Notes: generated by a model not told the origin, from the sequence alone. A stretch of DNA of 64,000 bases from Alphaproteobacteria bacterium (GCA_965228895.1 OZ245842.1:2784001-2848000), one strand, 5' to 3'. Numbered from the stretch's first letter, positions 43,654 to 52,534 are shown. Made by a program: numbers and translations.

Positions 43654-43718
43654 GCCGTGGCAGCTTCGGCCGTCTCCCTGCTAGCATGCCGACACATGCT
43701 CTTGGGGAGGAACGGAAG

Positions 43719-44471
43719 ATGTCGAACTTCAAAGGTTTGAAGGTTCTTGTGACCGGCTCGACACGCGGCATTGGCAAGGCGACCGTGCGGGCGTTTCGCG
43801 ACGCAGGCGCCATAGTCGCGGTCAACGGACGCAAACCTGAAGCCGTCGCGGCCACGATCGACGAGCTGGGCGGTGAGCGCCTGATCGCGGCACCCGGTGA
43901 CGTCGCCACGGCCGCGGCCTGCGACCAACTCGTCGGCGATGCCGTCACCTCGCTCGGCGGCCTCGACATCCTCGTCAACAACGCCGGCGTCTTCAGCGAA
44001 GGCCCGGTCGATGATGTCGGTGAAGACACTTATGACTGGCTGATGGATATCAACGTCAAGGGCGTCTTCTTCTGCAGCAAGGCGGCGCTACCTTCCTTGC
44101 GCGAAAGCAACGGATCGATCGTCAACACGGCATCGGAATCGGGCCTGGTCGGCAACGCGAACATGGCGCTCTATTGCGCCAGCAAAGGCGCGGTCGCCAA
44201 CCTGACGCGCGCCATGGCGTTCGATCTGGCGCCGGCGGTTCGCGTCAACGCGGTCTGCCCCGGCGGCGTCATGACCGACATGGTGACCGACGGGCAAGAC
44301 ATCACAGCCGACGACCCGTCGCTCGACGAGCTCAAGAACTATGCGCCCATGAAACGTATCGGCCTGCCGGAAGAGATTGCCGACGCGATCCTCTATCTGG
44401 CCAACCCCGCATCAAGGTTCACGACAGGCGCCATGCTGTCGGTCGACGGCGGCTCCACCGCCTGCCGCTAA
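43719..44471 (+). CDS. SDR oxidoreductase
   Basis: TGSTRGIG, NNAG, YCASK, VNAVCPG; GGAGG RBS. Confidence 0.92.
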   Translation: MSNFKGLKVLVTGSTRGIGKATVRAFRDAGAIVAVNGRKPEAVAATIDELGGERLIAAPGDVATAAACDQLVGDAVTSLGGLDILVNNAGVFSEGPVDDVGEDTYDWLMDINVKGVFFCSKAALPSLRESNGSIVNTASESGLVGNANMALYCASKGAVANLTRAMAFDLAPAVRVNAVCPGGVMTDMVTDGQDITADDPSLDELKNYAPMKRIGLPEEIADAILYLANPASRFTTGAMLSVDGGSTACR

Positions 44472-44564
44472 GATTTGGCAAAAAAGATGACAAGCTGATG
44501 TCAGCGGCTCATGCTGTTCCCCGTGGGCAATCTTCACGGGTTAACCGTGGATCGGGAGGACATC

Positions 44565-45686
44565 ATGAACCGCGTTAAAATGATTGACCGGCTGTCCCAA
44601 GGCAGGCTCAGCCGGCGCGAGGTCAAACAGTTGGCAGCGGCGGCCGGCGTCGTCGGTGTGACGGCGCCCGTCATAAACCGCCCGGCAAGGGCAGCAAGCG
44701 GTGAGGATCTGACCTATTTCACCTGGGGCGGATTCGAAGACCCGAACCTGTTCCCGACGTTTGTCAGCAGGTACGGCGACCCTGTCGTCACCTTCTATGG
44801 CGACGAGTACGAAGCGATCGAAAAGCTGCGTGCCGGCTATGAGGCCGATGTCGTCTGTCCGTGCATCGATGTCATGCCGAACTGGATGCGTGTTGGCCTC
44901 AAGCCGATCGACGAAAGCAGGTTGGAGTATCTGGACGACACCTTCGAGTCGATCCGGAGTCCCGAGGCGGCGTTCGACAAGGGCGAGCGCTACTATGTGC
45001 CGACCTATTACGGCTTCACCTCGTTCGTCTACCGCACGGACTTGACGGACATCACACCGGAAACGGAATCGTGGAAACTGTTCTTCGACGACACGTACGC
45101 CGGGCGCATCGCGATCTGGGATAGCACCGATGCGGTCATCCCGGTCGCGTCGCTTGCTGCTGGTGATCTGGAAGATCCCTATCGTCCGTCGGCCGAACGG
45201 CTGGAAGAGGTCGAGGCGTTAATGCGCAAGCAACGCGACCTCGTGCGTTTCTATTGGGGCGAGCAGACGTCGGCCCTGGAAGCGTTCGTGTCCGGCGAGG
45301 TCGTCTTGAGCTATGTCTGGTCGGCGGCCATTCCGCCCCTGCTTGAATCGGGCATTCCGTTCAAGTGGGCGCAACCGCAGGAAGGTCTCATCAGCTATGT
45401 CTGCGGTCTGTCGCGCGCCAACAAGGAAGGCACAGACGAAGCGTTGGTCTACGACTTCATCAACGCCAGCATGTCACCGGAAGCCGGCGCCTACATGATC
45501 GAGGTCTTTGCGCTCGGTGCCGCCAACAAGTCGTCCTACGACTTGGTTGATGCCGATGTTCTGGAGCGAAACGGCCTGTCGACACCGGAGGAGTCACTGG
45601 CGGGATCGCACACCTATCAGTTCGTCCCGGTCGATTTGAAGCAGGAGCATATTGCAATCTTCGACGAGATTCGCGCCGGTTTCTAA
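44565..45686 (+). CDS. PotD/PotF-like ABC substrate-binding protein, Tat signal
   Basis: LSRREV, FTWGGF, YAGRI, PQEG. Confidence 0.82.
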   Translation: MNRVKMIDRLSQGRLSRREVKQLAAAAGVVGVTAPVINRPARAASGEDLTYFTWGGFEDPNLFPTFVSRYGDPVVTFYGDEYEAIEKLRAGYEADVVCPCIDVMPNWMRVGLKPIDESRLEYLDDTFESIRSPEAAFDKGERYYVPTYYGFTSFVYRTDLTDITPETESWKLFFDDTYAGRIAIWDSTDAVIPVASLAAGDLEDPYRPSAERLEEVEALMRKQRDLVRFYWGEQTSALEAFVSGEVVLSYVWSAAIPPLLESGIPFKWAQPQEGLISYVCGLSRANKEGTDEALVYDFINASMSPEAGAYMIEVFALGAANKSSYDLVDADVLERNGLSTPEESLAGSHTYQFVPVDLKQEHIAIFDEIRAGF

Positions 45687-45768: not shown

Positions 45769-46116
45769 TCAGCGCGCGGCGATGCAGGCGATCTCGACCT
45801 TCAGGTCGGGTGCGGCCAATGCCGCCTCGACCGTGGCGCGGCAGGGCTTGTTGTGCGCGTCGACCCACTCGTCCCACACCTCGTTCATCTTCGCCCACTT
45901 GCCGATATCGGTGAGCCAGATATTGACCATCAGAAGCTTCGACTTGTCACTGCCGCACAGCGCCAGGGACCGGTCGATCTCCGCCAGGATCTGTCGGGTC
46001 TGCCCCCGGACGCCCTGACTGGTGTCGGTCGCGGTTTTGCCGGAAACGTAAACGGTGTCGCCGTGAACAATCGCGCCGCAGAAGAATTGGCCGGGTTCGT
46101 GACGAATGATGGTCAT
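45769..46116 (-). CDS. RidA/YoaB-like (Rid family) protein
   Basis: VYVSG, MNEVWD.W, PCRATVEA.L, VEI. Confidence 0.9.
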   Translation of the reverse strand: MTIIRHEPGQFFCGAIVHGDTVYVSGKTATDTSQGVRGQTRQILAEIDRSLALCGSDKSKLLMVNIWLTDIGKWAKMNEVWDEWVDAHNKPCRATVEAALAAPDLKVEIACIAAR

Positions 46117-46186
46117 GGATTAGGCTCCCGTGGTTTTTGGTTGTGATCACGGGAGCCTATAACACCTTTGCGGTTTCGGTGCTGCC

Positions 46187-46531
46187 TTAGATGGCCGCTG
46201 TCAGCGTGACCTCGATGCCGAAATCGAGCGCCAGGCCCGCCTCGACGGTCGCGCGGCACGGCTTGCTGTCGGAGTCGATCCATTCCAGCCAGACTTTGTT
46301 CATCTGCTGGAAGGTCGCCATGTCCTGCAGATAGACGTTGACCATCAAGACCTTGGACTTATGGCTGCCGCATGCGCCGAGGATGCGGTCGATCTCGACG
46401 AACACCTGACGCGACTGGCCTTCGACATCCTGGCTGGTATCGGCGGCGACTTGGCCCGAAAGATAGACGGTGTCGCCGTGGATCGAGGCGGCGCTGTACC
46501 AGTCCTTGGGCTCGATACGTTTAACGGTCAT
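46187..46531 (-). CDS. RidA/YoaB-like (Rid family) protein
   Basis: VYLSGQV, MNKVW, PCRATVEA.L, IEV. Confidence 0.9.
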   Translation of the reverse strand: MTVKRIEPKDWYSAASIHGDTVYLSGQVAADTSQDVEGQSRQVFVEIDRILGACGSHKSKVLMVNVYLQDMATFQQMNKVWLEWIDSDSKPCRATVEAGLALDFGIEVTLTAAI

Positions 46532-46668
46532 GAATGCTCTCCTTATTGAAGCCGGGCGCGCGGATCCTAACAGACACGACGGCGCAACAAAGCCCAGCCT
46601 TTGCCCCTTTTCTCGCGAGACGCAAGGCCCTACGGTTTGTCGGTACGATAACCGGAAGGAATCATCCC

Positions 46669-48099
46669 GTGCCCCTGCCCTCTGACGGATTGATCATGGT
46701 GGTCAAACGCGACTGCCCGACCTGCCAGTTGATCGTTCCGGTCGCTCGCGAGCTGGCCGAGCGCGGCATGCTGGCCGGACTCTACAGCCAGGACGATCCC
46801 GGCTTTCCCGAGGCGCTGGACGTCCTTGATGACGGCGAGCTCGAAGCCTCGTTTCATCTGGATATCGACATCGTGCCGACGCTGGTGCGCCGGGAGGCCG
46901 GCCAGGAAACAGCACGCGCCATCGGTTGGCACCGCGGCGAATGGCAGAACCTGACCGGCGTCAATGATCTGGGCGCCGACCTCCCGGACGAACGGCCGGG
47001 CTGCGGCTCGCTCTCGGTCGGCCCCGGCATGGCGGAAGAGCTTCAAGCCCGTTTCGGCGAGACCGGGCTCAAGGCCCGCGAAGTCCCGGTCGATTTTCCC
47101 GAAGACCCGATCGAGCAGATGTTCGACCGCGGCTGGACCGACGGCCTGCCCGTCGTGCCGCCGACACCGGCCCGCGTGCTGCGCATGCTGGACGGCACAT
47201 CACGGTCGCCCGACGACTTGGTCGGTAAGATCCCACCGGGCTTCGACGACTGCACGGTCGAAAAAGCCGCCATCAACGCGGTGATGGCCGGCTGCCGGCC
47301 GGACTATTTTCCAGTCGTGCTGGCCGCCCTTGATGCCGCTATGGACCCCGACTTCGCGTGGAGCGGCCTGTTGTCGACGACCATGGGCGCAGGGGTCGCC
47401 GTGGTCGTCAACGGTCCGATCGCCAAACGCATCGGCATGAACACCGGCATCAACGTGCTGGGCCACGGCAATCGCGCCAACGCGACGATCGCGCGTGCGC
47501 TGCTGCTGACGGCGATCAATGTCGGCGGCGCGGTGCCCGGCGGTGTCGACCGGTCGACGCTCGGCCATCCCGGCAAACACGGGCTCGCCTTTGCCGAAGA
47601 CGAAAGCGATCCCGATTGGCAGCCGCTTGCCTTCTCGCGCGGCTTCGAACCGGGCAAATCCGCCGTCACCGTGTTCGGCTTCTGCGGCACCAGCATCAAC
47701 AACGACGAGAAGGCGCGCGATGGCGAGGGCCTGACCCGGAGCCTGGCGCGCAGCCTCAACAGTTTCTATGACCCGCGTCTGACCGGCGGTGGGATCGGCG
47801 CCATGCTCGTCTTGTCGCCGGAATACTGGCGCGTCTACAAGGCGAGCGGCTGGGACCGCAGCCGGATCGAAGCCGGGCTTCACGAAGCGACAAAACGCAC
47901 CGAGGACATGATAGGGAACGACATCGTCGCCGCCCATGACGGCCCCGGCGACACGAGCGGCCTAACGGCGAAGTTTGCGCCGGGTGACCTCATCGTCGTA
48001 CGCGCCGGTGGCGCGGCGGGCCTGTTCTCGACTATCATCCAGGGCTGGGCCAGCGGCCCGACCGGCAGCCAGCCCGTGACCAGGGAGGTTATCCCATGA
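46669..48099 (+). CDS. Thioredoxin-like (CPTC) domain fused to a conserved uncharacterised domain (GWTDGLPVVPPT), partner of the UGSC protein
   Basis: VKRDCPTC, VPTL (cis-Pro), PGCGS linker, A.NAVMAGC, N.ANA.I.RA; ATGA-coupled to next gene; start assumed at GTG 46669. Confidence 0.8.
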   Translation: MPLPSDGLIMVVKRDCPTCQLIVPVARELAERGMLAGLYSQDDPGFPEALDVLDDGELEASFHLDIDIVPTLVRREAGQETARAIGWHRGEWQNLTGVNDLGADLPDERPGCGSLSVGPGMAEELQARFGETGLKAREVPVDFPEDPIEQMFDRGWTDGLPVVPPTPARVLRMLDGTSRSPDDLVGKIPPGFDDCTVEKAAINAVMAGCRPDYFPVVLAALDAAMDPDFAWSGLLSTTMGAGVAVVVNGPIAKRIGMNTGINVLGHGNRANATIARALLLTAINVGGAVPGGVDRSTLGHPGKHGLAFAEDESDPDWQPLAFSRGFEPGKSAVTVFGFCGTSINNDEKARDGEGLTRSLARSLNSFYDPRLTGGGIGAMLVLSPEYWRVYKASGWDRSRIEAGLHEATKRTEDMIGNDIVAAHDGPGDTSGLTAKFAPGDLIVVRAGGAAGLFSTIIQGWASGPTGSQPVTREVIP

Positions 48100-48623
48100 C
48101 CGAAACCACCGTTCTTCTCGATCCGACATCGGAGCGGGCGGGCGCCATGCGGTCGCGGCAAGCGCCGCCGCCGTCGCTCGACGGCCTGACGGTCGGCCTG
48201 CTCGATATCAGCAAGCCGCGCGGCGACGTTTTCCTCGACCGCCTGGAAAGTCTCTTGGGAAATCGAGGCATCACGGTCGAACGCTTCGCCAAGCCGACCG
48301 TCGCGAAGAAAGCGCCGGACGAGGTCATCGCCTCGATTGTCGAACGCTGCGATGTCGTGATTGAGGCGCTGGCCGATTGAGGCTCTTGCACGTCGTGCAG
48401 TCTGCAGGACATGTTGGAACTTGATCGACGCGGCCTCCCCGCCATCGCCGTGTTTTCCGAAGAGTTTGAGTCCGGTGTCATCGCGTGGCGCGAGCTGCAC
48501 GGCTTCGATGCCGGCGCGGTCTATGTGCGCCACCCGATCCAACCGCTGACCGACGACGAGGTGAACGAACGCGCCGACGCGGTGTTCGACACCATCATCG
48601 CGGGTATTACCCGGCCAGCCTAA
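48096..48623 (+). CDS. UGSC-family selenoprotein (UGA 48378-48380 read as Sec), 175 aa
   Basis: ORFs 48096-48380 and 48411-48623 are in one frame: ...EALAD-U-GSCTSCSLQDMLELDRRGLPA...HPIQ. Confidence 0.88.
48381..48410 (+). promoter_or_regulatory. Putative bacterial SECIS element
   Basis: GTCGTGCAGTCTGCAGGAC hairpin starts 12 nt after the UGA; resembles the UGCAGGUCUGCA apical stem-loop of E. coli fdhF. Confidence 0.65.
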
Positions 48624-48632
48624 GGAACAAGT

Positions 48633-49232
48633 GTGACATTGCGGGTCGTCGGTGCGGGAGTGGGTCGAACGGGGACAGCGTCGTTGAAGTTGGCTTTGGA
48701 ACAGCTGCTCGGCGGCAAGTGCCATCACATGTTCGAGGTGGCAGATAACCGTGACCAGGTTCCGGTCTGGACCGCTGCCGCCAATGGGAATATGCCGGAC
48801 TGGGGACAGTTTCTGAGCGGATACACCGCACTTGTCGATTGGCCTGGTGCATCGTTCTGGCCCGAGTTGAGCAGAGCTTTCCCGCATGCCCTCGTCCTCC
48901 TGTCGGTTCGCGATCCGGAAAGCTGGTACAAAAGCGCGAGCGAATCCATTTTTCTGGACGATCTCGAGGAGGAAACGGACTTCGACGTGATGTGGAGGTC
49001 CATCGTCCGCAACCGCTTCTGCGACGACCTGGGAAGCAAGGAAATGGTCATCGCCGCCATGATTGCCCATAACAAGGCCGTGGAAGCGGCGATACCGGCG
49101 AACCGGCTGCTGCGCTGGCAGGCCGGTGACGGGTGGGAGCCAATATGCGCGGCACTGGGCGTACCGGTTCCCGATGAACCGTTTCCGCACACCAACACAA
49201 AAAAACAGTTTCTCGCGAAAAACGGCCCGTAG
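48633..49232 (+). CDS. Sulfotransferase-like P-loop protein
   Basis: VVGAGVGRTGT.SLK.AL, C.HM, VDWP, RDPESW..S, GDGWEPIC..LG..VP..PFP. Confidence 0.85.
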   Translation: MTLRVVGAGVGRTGTASLKLALEQLLGGKCHHMFEVADNRDQVPVWTAAANGNMPDWGQFLSGYTALVDWPGASFWPELSRAFPHALVLLSVRDPESWYKSASESIFLDDLEEETDFDVMWRSIVRNRFCDDLGSKEMVIAAMIAHNKAVEAAIPANRLLRWQAGDGWEPICAALGVPVPDEPFPHTNTKKQFLAKNGP

Positions 49233-49252
49233 AAAACCGTATCGTTCCTTGC

Positions 49253-49867
49253 TTACAGCATGGTGGATCGCTGGCGCGTGGGACGTCCAACGAAAAGAAC
49301 GAAGAAGGCAAGCGTTGCTCCCAGCGCATTGAACACAAGATCAAGGGCCGTGTTGTAGTAGCCCCCGACACCGGTCTCCGGCGACACCACCACGGCCAGA
49401 AACTCGACGAGTTCGTTGACCGCGCCAAATCCCATGCTTGCGACCGCGCTAAGGACGAGAACCATCGTTGCGTAGGGACGAGCACAGTAGGGCCTGAGCA
49501 GGTGATGCACGACAAAGGTGGTCACAAAGAACCCGTAGAAATGTACGACTTGATCAAACCTTAAGACGAACCCGTCACCCGACCCGAACACGTGCACGAT
49601 CTCAAAGGCGTAGAGCACCCGGTCGCCCACAACGACACCGCCGCCCGCCATGTGCAGCAACCCCCACAGCGACAGCAACCACAGCAACCATGGTGGGAAC
49701 TGCGTTCGGTTCAGCGTCAGGCCGATAAGGACCATGAAGAACAGAAGGACGGCGACGTACCAGAGGAACTCATAGTTCTCGATGGCGAAGTAGTAGATGC
49801 CAAACCCAGCGACGTAGGCCAGGTTTGCCACAATGAGCCATAGATGTCGGCGGATGAGATCCATCAA
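49253..49867 (-). CDS. DUF2238-like integral membrane protein
   Basis: H..GG, FD..VHF.G, E..EF, T..DL..N..GA. Confidence 0.7.
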   Translation of the reverse strand: MMDLIRRHLWLIVANLAYVAGFGIYYFAIENYEFLWYVAVLLFFMVLIGLTLNRTQFPPWLLWLLSLWGLLHMAGGGVVVGDRVLYAFEIVHVFGSGDGFVLRFDQVVHFYGFFVTTFVVHHLLRPYCARPYATMVLVLSAVASMGFGAVNELVEFLAVVVSPETGVGGYYNTALDLVFNALGATLAFFVLFVGRPTRQRSTML

Positions 49868-49879
49868 ACTTGCAAAGGT

Positions 49880-51043
49880 CTAGAGGGCACCTGGTTTCCG
49901 GTCGGGCTTCACCGATGACGAGCGCACGACGTTGTCGTCGCGCAGCCGCACCGGCTGACGTTTGCGGCCCCAGGTGCCCGGCTGGTGTTCGAAGACGCCG
50001 GCGACGGCCGTGCCGCAACTACCACAATGGCCACCCTGCTGAATGCCCCAATGGGTGAGCTCATACCAGTCGCGGCCGATCAGCGCCGTGCCGCAGTTGG
50101 GACAGGTTGTCGTGTCGCCGTCACGGTCGTGCACGTTACCGGTATAGGCATAACGAACGCCGTTCTCGATCGCGATGCGGCGCGCGCGCGTCAGTGTCGC
50201 CGGCGGCGTGTTGCCCTTATCCAGCATGCGGTAGTCGGGATGAAACGCCGTGAAGTGCATGGGCACATCCGGCCCCAGTTTGTCGACCACCCATCGGGTC
50301 ATGGCGTCGATTTCATCGGCTGAATCGTTTTCGCCGGGGATCAGCAGCGTCGTCAATTCGAACCACACATCGGTCTCGTGCTTGAGATATTCGAGCGTCT
50401 CCAGAACCGGCGCCAGCTCGCCGGCACAGATCTTTTTGTAGAAGCGCTCGGTGAACGCCTTCAGATCGACATTGGCCGCATCCATGGCGGCGAAGAACTC
50501 GGCGCGCGGCTCCGCCGTCACGTAGCCGGCGGTGACCGCGACCGTCTTGACCCCAACCGCGCGGCAGGCCTCTGCCACATCAACCGCGTATTCGTGAAAG
50601 ATGACGGGGTCGTTATAGGTAAAGGCGACCGAACGGCAGCCGAGATCGCGTGCCACGGCGGCGATCTTCTCCGGCGGCGCCTGATCGGCGAGCGTGTCGA
50701 TTTCACGCGACTTCGAGATATCCCAGTTCTGGCAGAACTTGCAGGCGAGATTGCAGCCCGCCGTGCCGAAAGAGAGCACCGGCGTGCCCGGCAAAAAGTG
50801 GTTAAGCGGCTTTTTCTCGATCGGGTCGATGCAATAGCCGCTGGAGCGGCCATAGGTTGTCAGAACGATAGCGCCGTCCTGTGCCTGGCGGACGAAGCAA
50901 AGCCCGCGCTGGCCCTCGTTGAGCTTGCAAAACCGCGGACACAGGTCGCACTGCACGCGACCATCGTCCAGGGCATGCCAATAGCGGCCAGGGAACACGC
51001 CAAACGTGTTCATTTCCCGTGTCTTTTCGGTGGTATCCGACAT
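49880..51043 (-). CDS. amrS: AmmeMemoRadiSam system radical SAM enzyme
   Basis: C..CP..C, DPIEKKPL.HF.PG, GCNLACKFCQN (CxxxCxxC), YTGNV, CPNC. Confidence 0.93.
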   Translation of the reverse strand: MSDTTEKTREMNTFGVFPGRYWHALDDGRVQCDLCPRFCKLNEGQRGLCFVRQAQDGAIVLTTYGRSSGYCIDPIEKKPLNHFLPGTPVLSFGTAGCNLACKFCQNWDISKSREIDTLADQAPPEKIAAVARDLGCRSVAFTYNDPVIFHEYAVDVAEACRAVGVKTVAVTAGYVTAEPRAEFFAAMDAANVDLKAFTERFYKKICAGELAPVLETLEYLKHETDVWFELTTLLIPGENDSADEIDAMTRWVVDKLGPDVPMHFTAFHPDYRMLDKGNTPPATLTRARRIAIENGVRYAYTGNVHDRDGDTTTCPNCGTALIGRDWYELTHWGIQQGGHCGSCGTAVAGVFEHQPGTWGRKRQPVRLRDDNVVRSSSVKPDRKPGAL

Positions 51044-51142
51044 CCTCACGCTAGGCCGGGCTCGCAACCGGGCTCCGGCCTTCCCACCTAGTATCTTATG
51101 TCTATGTGGGTATTGCCCCGCGCGATGTCATGACGGACGACG

Positions 51143-52534
51143 ATGATGACAGGCATCCGTGAACCCCAGCTTGCCGGCACCTGGTATCCAGGCGACGCCC
51201 AGGCTTTGGGTATGGCGGTTGACGACTATATCGCCAGCGCCGAGACGATGGCGCCGCAACGGCTTGATCGTCTGAAGGCGGTGATCGCGCCGCACGCGGG
51301 TTACCGCTATTCGGGCCCGGTCGCCGGCAGCGCCTATGCCCAGGTCGCAGCCATCGGCGAGCGCATCAACCGCGTCGTCCTGTTCGGACCGTCGCACCAT
51401 GTCGGCTTTCGTGGTCTGGCGGTCAGCGGCGCCGACGCTTTCCGTACGCCACTGGGCACCGTGCCGATCGATCGCGATGCCGTGCGCCATCTGATGAACC
51501 TGCCCTTCGTCCAGCACATGGAAGCCGCCCACGCGCGCGAGCATAGCCTGGAGATCCACCTGCCCTTCCTGCAACGGGCAATCGGCGACTTCTCGCTGGT
51601 GCCTGTCGTCACCGGGGATGCATCGCCCGGCCAAGTCGCCGAGGCGCTGGCGCATCTTTGGGGCGGGCCGGAGACGCTTGTCGTGATCAGCACCGACCTC
51701 ACCCACTTTCTGGACTACGACACCGCGCGCCGCGTCGATGCTGCGACGTCGCTGTCGATTGTCGGCTGCCAGCCTGACGCCATCGGCGACGATCACGCGT
51801 GCGGCCGGGTCGGCTTGAAAGGACTTCTGGAGATCGGCCACCGCCACACCATCGATGTCGATCTCCTGGATCTCAGGAGCTCCGGCGACACCAGCGGCCG
51901 GCGCGATCAGGTGGTCGGCTATGGTTCGTGGGCCGCGATGGATGTGGGCGACCCGGTCACCGATCTTGAGATCATCGCGCTTGGCCACGGCCGCCTGATC
52001 CGGCGGCTTGCAGCGGATGCCATTCGCCATGGCCTGATCACCGGACACGAGCCCGAAGGACTGTGGGACGACGCGCCGCCGGCATTGGCGCGCGACGTCG
52101 CCAGTTTCGTCACGCTGCGCAAAGCCGGTGAGTTACGCGGCTGTATCGGATCGGCCGAGGCGCACCGCCCGCTCGCACAAGACGTCGCCGTGAATGCCTT
52201 TAAATCGGCGTTCCACGACCCACGGTTCCGCCCGCTCGACGAGCGTGAGTTCGACCAACTGGACATCGACATCGCGCTGTTGAGCGAGCCCCAGATCCTG
52301 ACCGTGACCGATGAGGCGGACCTGATCGAGCGGCTCAGGCCCGGCATCGACGGACTGATCCTGGACGACGGGCAGCGCCGCGCCCTTTTTCTGCCGGCCG
52401 TTTGGCAAAACCTTACCGAACCAAGGGACTTTGTGCGCCACCTCAAAGAGAAGGCCGGCTGGAGCGCCAGCGACTGGTCGCCCTCGATAACCGCGCACGC
52501 GTTTCGGGCCGTAAAAATCACCGGAGCCGACTAG
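51143..52534 (+). CDS. amrB: AmmeMemoRadiSam AmrB (MEMO1-like)-AmrA (AMMECR1) fusion
   Basis: AG.WYP, PHAGY.YSG, EHSLE, S.DL.H, ACG, VVGY; then FVTL, LRGCIG, DPRF, LFLP.VW, L..KAG. Confidence 0.92.
   Translation: MMTGIREPQLAGTWYPGDAQALGMAVDDYIASAETMAPQRLDRLKAVIAPHAGYRYSGPVAGSAYAQVAAIGERINRVVLFGPSHHVGFRGLAVSGADAFRTPLGTVPIDRDAVRHLMNLPFVQHMEAAHAREHSLEIHLPFLQRAIGDFSLVPVVTGDASPGQVAEALAHLWGGPETLVVISTDLTHFLDYDTARRVDAATSLSIVGCQPDAIGDDHACGRVGLKGLLEIGHRHTIDVDLLDLRSSGDTSGRRDQVVGYGSWAAMDVGDPVTDLEIIALGHGRLIRRLAADAIRHGLITGHEPEGLWDDAPPALARDVASFVTLRKAGELRGCIGSAEAHRPLAQDVAVNAFKSAFHDPRFRPLDEREFDQLDIDIALLSEPQILTVTDEADLIERLRPGIDGLILDDGQRRALFLPAVWQNLTEPRDFVRHLKEKAGWSASDWSPSITAHAFRAVKITGAD

Follow-up and report, generated by a model that had tools for sequence, protein, structure and literature searches.

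Genes A and B, two overlapping genes on the plus strand of a 64,000-nt stretch of the genome of an Alphaproteobacteria bacterium (GCA_965228895.1 OZ245842.1:2784001-2848000, hereafter the window), make up a well-supported two-gene cassette for a selenocysteine (Sec) enzyme that is probably driven by thioredoxin and has an uncatalogued putative catalytic domain. Gene A (46669..48099) specifies a protein of 476 amino acids (aa) in which a linker containing Cys joins a thioredoxin fold at the N-terminus to an uncatalogued C-terminal domain of about 340 aa, referred to below as the partner domain. Gene B (48096..48623) encodes a selenoprotein of the UGSC family, 175 aa long and carrying the sequence D-U-G-S-C-T-S-C. 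They are followed on the same strand by gene C (48633..49232, GTG start), which codes for a Sulfotransfer_4 protein, and the three closely packed genes fill positions 46669-49232. That A and B are self-contained and serve a thiol/selenol-based reductase, driven by thioredoxin and dependent on Sec, is the interpretation we favor and regard as reasonably probable.

The association of the two families was followed across 80 loci that encode relatives of gene A. In 77 of them gene A is directly followed, in the same orientation, by a UGSC gene (about 1 kb away in L036). Only one of the three exceptions, L038, is a true miss, since the records of L019 and L095 end at or inside gene A and leave no room for a UGSC gene. 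According to the record titles, from which the taxa were taken, the loci belong to Alpha-, Beta-, Gamma- and 'Delta'-proteobacteria, Gemmatimonadota, Chloroflexota/Anaerolineae, Acidimicrobiales, Nitrospirales and others, with records of Reyranella aquatilis among them, and this spread across phyla makes chance or mere synteny an unlikely cause of the pairing. Among 301 genomes sampled from the phylum of the window, UGSC occurs in 4 and the partner domain in the same 4, always adjacent. All of 13 further UGSC loci have the partner domain adjoining or, in L117, fused in frame. Clustering of the flanking open reading frames (ORFs), with a filter on third-codon-position GC content (GC3) against the antisense ORFs of GC-rich DNA, revealed no other conserved neighbor, the largest flanking cluster being present in 11 of the 80 loci. 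A and UGSC are a conserved functional pair by adjacency, phyletic co-occurrence and natural fusions. A separate observation concerns one genome of the phylum sample (G224), which has two cassettes that lack the thioredoxin fusion. In one, UGSC is followed by a partner domain and then by a second partner domain (L099/L102/L105); in the other, a stand-alone partner domain precedes UGSC (L098/L104).

Gene B scores 138.7 bits against the NCBIfam model NF041046 'UGSC family (seleno)protein' (curated cut-off 125) and 148.1 bits against Pfam PF24696 (E 3.7e-43, cut-off 25). Its Sec codon is an in-frame TGA (U95, 48378..48380) within D-U-G-S-C, and the alignment of 24 UGSC members stays in frame through it. 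The genome, a single 5.53-Mb contig, carries selA, selB and selD at 4.49 Mb, all above curated cut-offs, with the tRNA-Sec gene sited between them. A hairpin resembling a Sec insertion sequence (SECIS) is present at 48378..48423, with an upper helix at 48392-48410 and an apical GUC loop; the hairpin lies 12 nt past the UGA. In an alignment of 73 sequences (the window and 72 distinct UGSC genes), 94.7% of the cells of the upper helix are paired (columns 15-22 with 26-33, closed by an apical G-U-N loop), and the complete 17-pair hairpin reaches 84.3% as against 27-41% for slid partners. Pair 18-30 is GC in 35 sequences, GU in 23, AU in 10 and something else in 5, these five being the window and its four nearest relatives (L016, L017, L018 and L020). 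The compensatory GC/GU/AU changes at this pair are synonymous and occupy third positions of Ser and His codons. Three natural Cys forms (L083:2825, L090:5716 and L097:1693) keep only 5-6 of the 8 pairs of the upper helix and have lost the apical GCAGUNUGCA, a decay that provides a useful internal control for the SECIS. The apical part presumably resembles that of the E. coli fdhF SECIS. No Rfam family, SECIS models included, matched positions 46000-50000 at E<=1. Gene B is a genuine UGSC-family selenoprotein, and it does not differ from the 'UGSC-containing protein' of the Olavius and Global Ocean Sampling (GOS) surveys (PMC1976440, PMC2398784).

The UGSC column holds TGA in 75 and Cys in 2 of the 77 neighboring UGSC genes. 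In the GOS data the corresponding figures are 255 Sec and 21 Cys, the highest ratio among the families in the excerpt of Table 2 seen here (PMC2398784). The scarcity of forms with Cys suggests an essential rather than an optional role for the chemistry of the selenol. Behind the Sec, two Cys complete a UxxCxxC motif (U95, C98, C101) that is invariant across the 24 aligned members. Neither sequence nor profile searches of the PDB with UGSC returned anything below E 0.1, and a natural Cys homologue gave no usable match in the ESM Atlas.

Gene A begins at the GTG at 46669, with GGAAGGA upstream. Its homologues (472-477 aa, identity up to 89%) agree with the 476 aa read from this codon. A longer frame from ATG-46534 was rejected; it would enter a divergent RidA gene. 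The ATG of gene B and the stop of gene A overlap as ATGA (48096-48099), and 9 nt separate the TAA of gene B from the GTG of gene C. The promoter and terminator scan was not informative: it returned no promoter-like site and four terminator-like sites, all within gene A (2.7 expected) and none between B and C.

The N-terminal domain of gene A has a thioredoxin fold, recognized by structure only. Residues 1-98 (46669..46962) are modeled by AlphaFold2 (AF2) with a predicted local distance difference test (pLDDT) of 88-96 and superpose on thioredoxin 6z7o_A with a VIA-align Z of 9.3 and a root mean square deviation (rmsd) of 2.1 over 89 aligned residues. Dozens of further thioredoxins match the same residues at Z 7.4-9.1. 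No thioredoxin-type Pfam model exceeds its cut-off against gene A, the sole match being TraF with 14.4 bits for a cut-off of 23. The CPTC motif (residues 16-19, 46714..46725) heads the first helix (residues 17-21 of the model) in the C16-P-T-C19 arrangement. The linker contains PGCGS (residues 110-114, 46996..47010), of which P110, C112, G113 and S114 are invariant in the 27 aligned homologues. Four Cys are likewise conserved in 27/27: C16, C19, C112 and C209, the last one in the partner domain. An [RK]PGC motif is found about 45 aa upstream of TDGLP, a motif of the partner domain, in 10 of 11 inspected forms fused to a thioredoxin (Trx) or peroxiredoxin (Prx) fold (the eleventh, P0205, gave no TDGLP match) and is absent from the stand-alone, UGSC-fused and thioredoxin reductase (TrxR)-fused forms.

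The partner domain (residues 131-476 of A, 47059..48096) is the companion of UGSC. It carries the GWTDGLPVVPPT motif (residues 155-166, 47131..47166), in which D158, L160 and P161 are invariant family-wide, the MAGC motif with Cys209 (residues 206-209, 47284..47295) and the GNRANATIAR loop (47467..47496), whose N271 and R276 are invariant. No Pfam or NCBIfam family matches it, and the comparison of 38 members with Pfam at E<=5 gave no family common to more than one of them. The family is large: 7961 of 8000 candidates scored belong to it at E<=0.001, and there are 5620 representatives at 50% identity, 1157 of which reach E<=1e-30. Many representatives are stand-alone partner domains of about 350 aa. 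Their invariant residues are, in domain numbering, D28, L30 and P31 (TDGLP), N141 and R146 (RANATxxR), E180 and W187; A77, G78 and C79 (AGC) are invariant in 38/38 members. C79, which is Cys209 of gene A, is the sole invariant Cys of the stand-alone family. The clusters nearest to the partner domain in the ESM Atlas have either no name or the automatic name 'thioredoxin family', and one of them, at 0.89, includes UGSC on 16% of its members.

The sequence-only reading of this region, made before any database search, had described a CPTC thioredoxin-like domain, the motifs CPTC, PGCGS, GWTDGLPVVPPT and MAGC and a large domain of unknown function in the first protein, a UGSC selenoprotein as the second, and three genes coupled by an ATGA overlap and a 9-nt gap. 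All of this agrees with the results: the ORF coordinates reproduce the coupling, each motif is found in gene A, the thioredoxin match (Z 9.3 to 6z7o_A) and the invariant C16/C19 account for the N-terminal domain, the large domain has neither a Pfam/NCBIfam model nor a solved-structure match, and the selenoprotein is substantiated by its profile scores, in-frame TGA, hairpin and the selA/selB/selD/tRNA-Sec set. The neighborhood and phylogenetic profiling it had proposed for the two families finds them together (77/80 loci, the same 4/301 genomes).

Fold searches made with the whole gene A model were dominated by the thioredoxin part. Folded by itself with 38 sequences, the partner domain gives a pLDDT of 89.1 and a predicted template modeling score (pTM) of 0.91. 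Neither the 48161 representatives nor the 948 Foldseek matches that were re-aligned include a solved chain at Z>=5, and the PDB holds nothing below E 0.1 for gene A or for the partner-domain profile. The best match, a weak one, is AroH chorismate mutase (Z 4.3, rmsd 2.9 over 91 residues, restricted to model residues ~207-333). Weak matches were also obtained to class I fumarate hydratase over the whole domain (Z 4.2 and rmsd 6.2 for 191 aligned residues; Foldseek E 8e-4, TM 0.26), to cyclic amide hydrolases (Z 3.5) and to L-serine dehydratase, which like fumarate hydratase is a 4Fe-4S hydro-lyase; the best Z values fall at 4.0-4.3. In our reading the fold is not an established one, although it hints at YjgF/chorismate-mutase-like modules. 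Folds of the YjgF/RidA-AroH kind, which also build chorismatase, Toblerone-fold cyclic amide hydrolases and class I fumarate hydratase, typically have their active sites between subunits. The dimer model of the partner domain suggests an interface active site as well; however, the scores lie below the level of a shared fold and there is no sequence similarity.

Two copies of the window partner domain folded together with ESMFold2 score 0.87 in 3/3 runs, whereas the highest of three controls scored 0.00. Of 30 proteins solved as one-chain pairs, 21 attain the mark applied to this score; of 23 solved as single chains, none does. At least 76% of the contacts agree between runs and the pLDDT of the partners is at least 84. 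As neither the sequence nor the fold has a solved relative, the dimer is unlikely to pass through memorization by the model. The predicted interface is formed by residues 27-33 (TDGLP), 77-78 (beside C79) and 131-146 (RANAT loop) in domain numbering. Contacts between the RANAT loop of one copy and the TDGLP loop of its mate have the lowest error, and A77 and G78 contact the TDGLP loop of the opposite copy. Since the invariant motifs are all located at the interface, the invariant residues converge across the predicted dimer. The partner domain is therefore predicted to dimerize, the model supporting the pairing without showing it.

The fusions of the partner domain are a guide to its requirements. 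Of 150 longer representatives listed, 43 were scanned: a UGSC part, on either side of the partner domain and truncated at the TGA by the gene caller, is present in 14, an AhpC/TSA-Redoxin domain in 7 and FeThRed_B (the catalytic chain of ferredoxin:thioredoxin reductase) in 2, and 21 are without a Pfam match. P0187 and P0228 are complete Cys-form fusions with the UGSC domain, and P0133 is a Prx-like fusion. The 29 forms of 607-2000 aa comprise 16 with UGSC, 3 with Pyr_redox_2 (a pyridine-nucleotide disulfide oxidoreductase domain, thioredoxin-reductase-like), one with Redoxin (P0279), 4 singletons and 5 with nothing. Forms of about 710 aa consist of two partner domains in tandem with AGC kept in both halves; together with the dimer model, these point to an active site between subunits. 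From this inventory, the partner domain has been joined repeatedly to dithiol electron-delivery modules and to UGSC itself. The four singletons join the family to a Cys/Met-metabolism pyridoxal phosphate (PLP) enzyme, an IclR regulator, a glyoxalase or an alpha/beta hydrolase (P0273, P0274, P0277, P0281). They have 1-3 member sequences from one contig each and are consequently considered as probable merged gene calls, which may still record gene neighbors.

These observations can be assembled into a scheme in which the contact between A and UGSC, the order of the relay and reduction as the net reaction are inferred. The partner domain would be the substrate-binding catalytic part and would act as a dimer, the TDGLP loop of one copy meeting the RANAT loop and the AGC Cys of the other. 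UGSC would contribute Sec95, with the resolving C98 behind it (plus C101 in this subfamily), and Sec95 would attack the enzyme-bound substrate or an oxidized Cys209. The resulting selenenylsulfide would be reduced by the tethered thioredoxin module C16-P-T-C19, probably through linker Cys112, and this module would in turn be recharged by the cellular thioredoxin reductase. The variety of electron-delivery modules found in the fusions is consistent with a reductase supplied by a thioredoxin-type relay. The Trx-MsrA-MsrB fusion of the PilB type also has its own thioredoxin module fused to a catalytic enzyme, where it reduces the catalytic disulfide or selenenylsulfide in cis. The arrangement described here differs in that the catalytic domain of A is in no described family and that the redox Sec is on a separate small protein, UGSC. 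The sequence-only reading had postulated a built-in Cys relay. The invariance of C16, C19, C112 and C209 (27/27) and the fused reductant modules fit this idea, but the relay as drawn would hold for the present subfamily only.

Several points weigh against this interpretation. The 80 loci are related to each other and the counts derived from them are not independent. The partner domain shows no recognized catalytic fold, its best structural matches being weak (Z <=4.3). The dimer was folded without an alignment, and its score expresses the model's own confidence and is not a measurement. The fusions show electron delivery but neither its direction nor the chemistry. In the window itself, pair 18-30 of the hairpin is a G.G mismatch; this accompanies the replacement, in the window clade, of the otherwise conserved His after UGSCTSC by Gln, while the loop and the four pairs of the upper part remain intact. 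Finally, only Sec/Cys95 is universal among divergent UGSC members: C98 is lost in P0187, and C101 is replaced by W in L099, L117 and P0228 and by T in P0187. The three-residue U/C/C motif and the relay as drawn are for this reason restricted to the subfamily of gene B.

The other readings differ mainly in the chemistry assigned to the pair. In the Grd and Prd systems (GrdB with GrdE, PrdB with PrdA), a selenoprotein works with a larger partner subunit, electrons are supplied by the thioredoxin system and Sec is rarely replaced by Cys. A-UGSC would be alike in all three respects, and could be a functional analogue of glycine/betaine reductase protein B or of D-proline reductase, an option that we rate as unlikely. 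The partner would then bind an amine or imine, perhaps via a carbonyl produced by self-cleavage before Cys209, the Sec of UGSC would attack the carbon so that a C-N (or C-S) bond is cleaved reductively, and thioredoxin would re-reduce the Se-S bond. Besides the common architecture of selenoprotein, larger partner and thioredoxin supply, this would be in keeping with the invariant Gly-Cys of the partner domain, with the invariant D, N, R, E and W at the predicted interface, with the weak fold echoes of YjgF/chorismate-mutase-like modules, whose ligands are small acids or imines held between subunits, and with a Sec:Cys ratio as extreme as where selenol chemistry is essential (Table 2 of PMC2398784, in the excerpt seen). 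However, Pfam GRDB (PF07355) matches neither gene B at E<=10 nor 24 UGSC members at E<=5, although HMMER filters discard most matches above E 0.1 and thereby leave room for a very remote kinship, and Gly_reductase is absent among the single Pfam matches of the 38 partner-domain members at E<=5. The absence of GRDB from the 301 phylum genomes is uninformative, as 14 control genomes have no match either. No GrdA/GrdC/GrdD-type operon partners are conserved around the pair, no flanking cluster occurring in more than 11/80 loci; the carriers appear from their record titles to be aerobic aquatic and soil lineages, unlike the classical Stickland fermenters; and C209 is placed between two helices in the model, not in an obvious cleavage loop. 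Membership of A-UGSC in the Grd/Prd families is not supported by these comparisons, and the likeness, to which the sequence-only reading had pointed with its analogy to Stickland reductases, is plausible as a working analogy only. A function in antioxidant defense or repair, as a Sec-dependent peroxidase or a reductase of sulfoxides, disulfides or sulfenic acids with Cys209 as second redox center, seems quite unlikely to us. It is suggested by the AhpC/TSA-Redoxin fusions (7/43 representatives, P0133 and P0279), by a cassette without pathway neighbors, as would suit housekeeping defense, and by UxxC, a common redox motif of Trx-fold-like selenoproteins (PMC2398784, parts consulted). Yet simple thiol-peroxide families usually have far more Cys than Sec forms, the opposite of UGSC in the same parts of that survey, and a dimeric domain of about 340 aa with invariant D, N, R, E and W exceeds the needs of such chemistry.

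An interface site binding a metal or metalloid (Hg, As, Se, Te) or an Fe-S cluster through U95-x-x-C98-x-x-C101 and Cys209, with a role in detoxification, selenium handling or a hydro-lyase-type reaction, could be imagined from the invariance of UxxCxxC in the 24 aligned members, the weak fold matches to 4Fe-4S hydro-lyases (class I fumarate hydratase, L-serine dehydratase) and the fusions to FeThRed_B, an Fe-S protein module. We consider it very unlikely. Several divergent members lack the third Cys (it is W in L099, L117 and P0228 and T in P0187, which is without the second as well), the fold matches at Z<=4.3 are too weak to be meaningful, genes for metal resistance or Fe-S assembly are not conserved nearby, and the single invariant Cys of the partner domain rules out a three-Cys Fe-S site within it. 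The last alternative, put forward by the sequence-only reading, includes gene C in a three-gene operon whose sulfotransferase would modify the substrate or product of the Sec enzyme. Gene C matches Pfam PF17784 (Sulfotransfer_4) over its full length (E 1.3e-56, 192.3 bits, cut-off 22.8, profile positions 1-215/215). With the 9-nt gap and no terminator-like site in the B-C interval, it is probably co-transcribed with A-B in this genome, and the same A-UGSC-sulfotransferase order exists elsewhere only in one genome of the same genus (G302, L122). The distribution of the family tells otherwise. Sulfotransfer_4 is found at 0 of the 80 related loci at E<=0.01; among 31 relatives the sulfotransferase is present in 12 and UGSC in 16, many having just one of them; and in G303 and G307 the two genes are on different contigs. 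The three-gene version is largely refuted by this distribution and we judge it highly improbable. The link between the sulfotransferase family and the UGSC cassette is confined to this genus, and gene C is a lineage-specific neighbor, a passenger of the genus that is outside the conserved unit.

Upstream of gene A, two tandem RidA (Ribonuc_L-PSP) genes (45769-46116 and 46187-46531, minus strand) are divergent from it. A single divergent RidA gene is present upstream in the 5 closest related loci (L016-L020) and in 0/75 others, so that this arrangement is probably clade-level synteny. These neighbors are of interest because of the weak YjgF/RidA-like structural echoes of the partner domain. Further upstream are a short-chain dehydrogenase gene (43713-44468, plus strand) and a solute-binding protein gene (44511-45683, plus strand), the latter not found in the related loci. 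On the other side, a DUF2238 membrane protein (49253-49867, minus strand) is convergent with gene C and absent from the 80 related loci. It is followed by a radical SAM gene (49880-51067, minus strand), divergent from a gene for a Memo-like + AMMECR1 fusion (51143-52534, plus strand); this pair resembles an AmmeMemoRadiSam-type set compressed into two genes.

UGSC was described in 2007 as 'a selenoprotein of unknown function' (PMC1976440) and in 2008 as a major GOS selenoprotein family, commoner in non-marine samples (PMC2398784), as far as the available text of both papers goes. In the excerpts of these surveys and of a 2026 review (PMC13188914), it has counted since 2007-2008 as one of the most abundant selenoproteins in marine and, above all, in freshwater communities. 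Papers of 2016, 2022 and 2026 include it in tables, in the sections seen, and functions are said there to remain largely uncharacterized (PMC13188914 for 2026). The full-text literature searched contains UGSC only in selenoproteome surveys and reviews, and no paper on an operon with a thioredoxin-fused partner. The sequence-only reading had known of no described biochemistry for the pair, in accordance with this search, which found no characterized function. The fusion is already partly in print: the 2008 paper, in the portion at hand, reports a 'UGSC/Unknown_1' fusion (Figure S1A of PMC2398784), and this 'Unknown_1' may be the partner domain, which would then have been aligned in that year.

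For the window, the results correct the annotation in that the sulfotransferase is not part of the A-UGSC system. For UGSC, they provide a fixed partner with invariant residues at a predicted dimer interface, and a clear electron source, namely the thioredoxin, Prx-like, ferredoxin:thioredoxin-reductase-like or thioredoxin-reductase-like modules fused to this partner. The function of UGSC can now be reduced to a defined two-protein biochemical question. They also expose a second gap, a large family (5620 representatives at 50% identity) without a Pfam or NCBIfam model. If Sec is essential to the chemistry, there is room for Stickland-like bond cleavage. It is conceivable, and we put it forward tentatively as a doubtful but not negligible prospect, that the pair represents a new class of selenoenzyme, with a catalytic domain whose fold has no solved relative, an active site at a dimer interface and selenol-dependent reductive bond cleavage in aerobic aquatic and soil bacteria. 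With the same reserve, its substrate might be an amine, an imine or a sulfur/onium compound undergoing a Stickland-like cleavage. If true, this would explain why the UGSC that is so abundant in the environment almost never has Cys in place of Sec.

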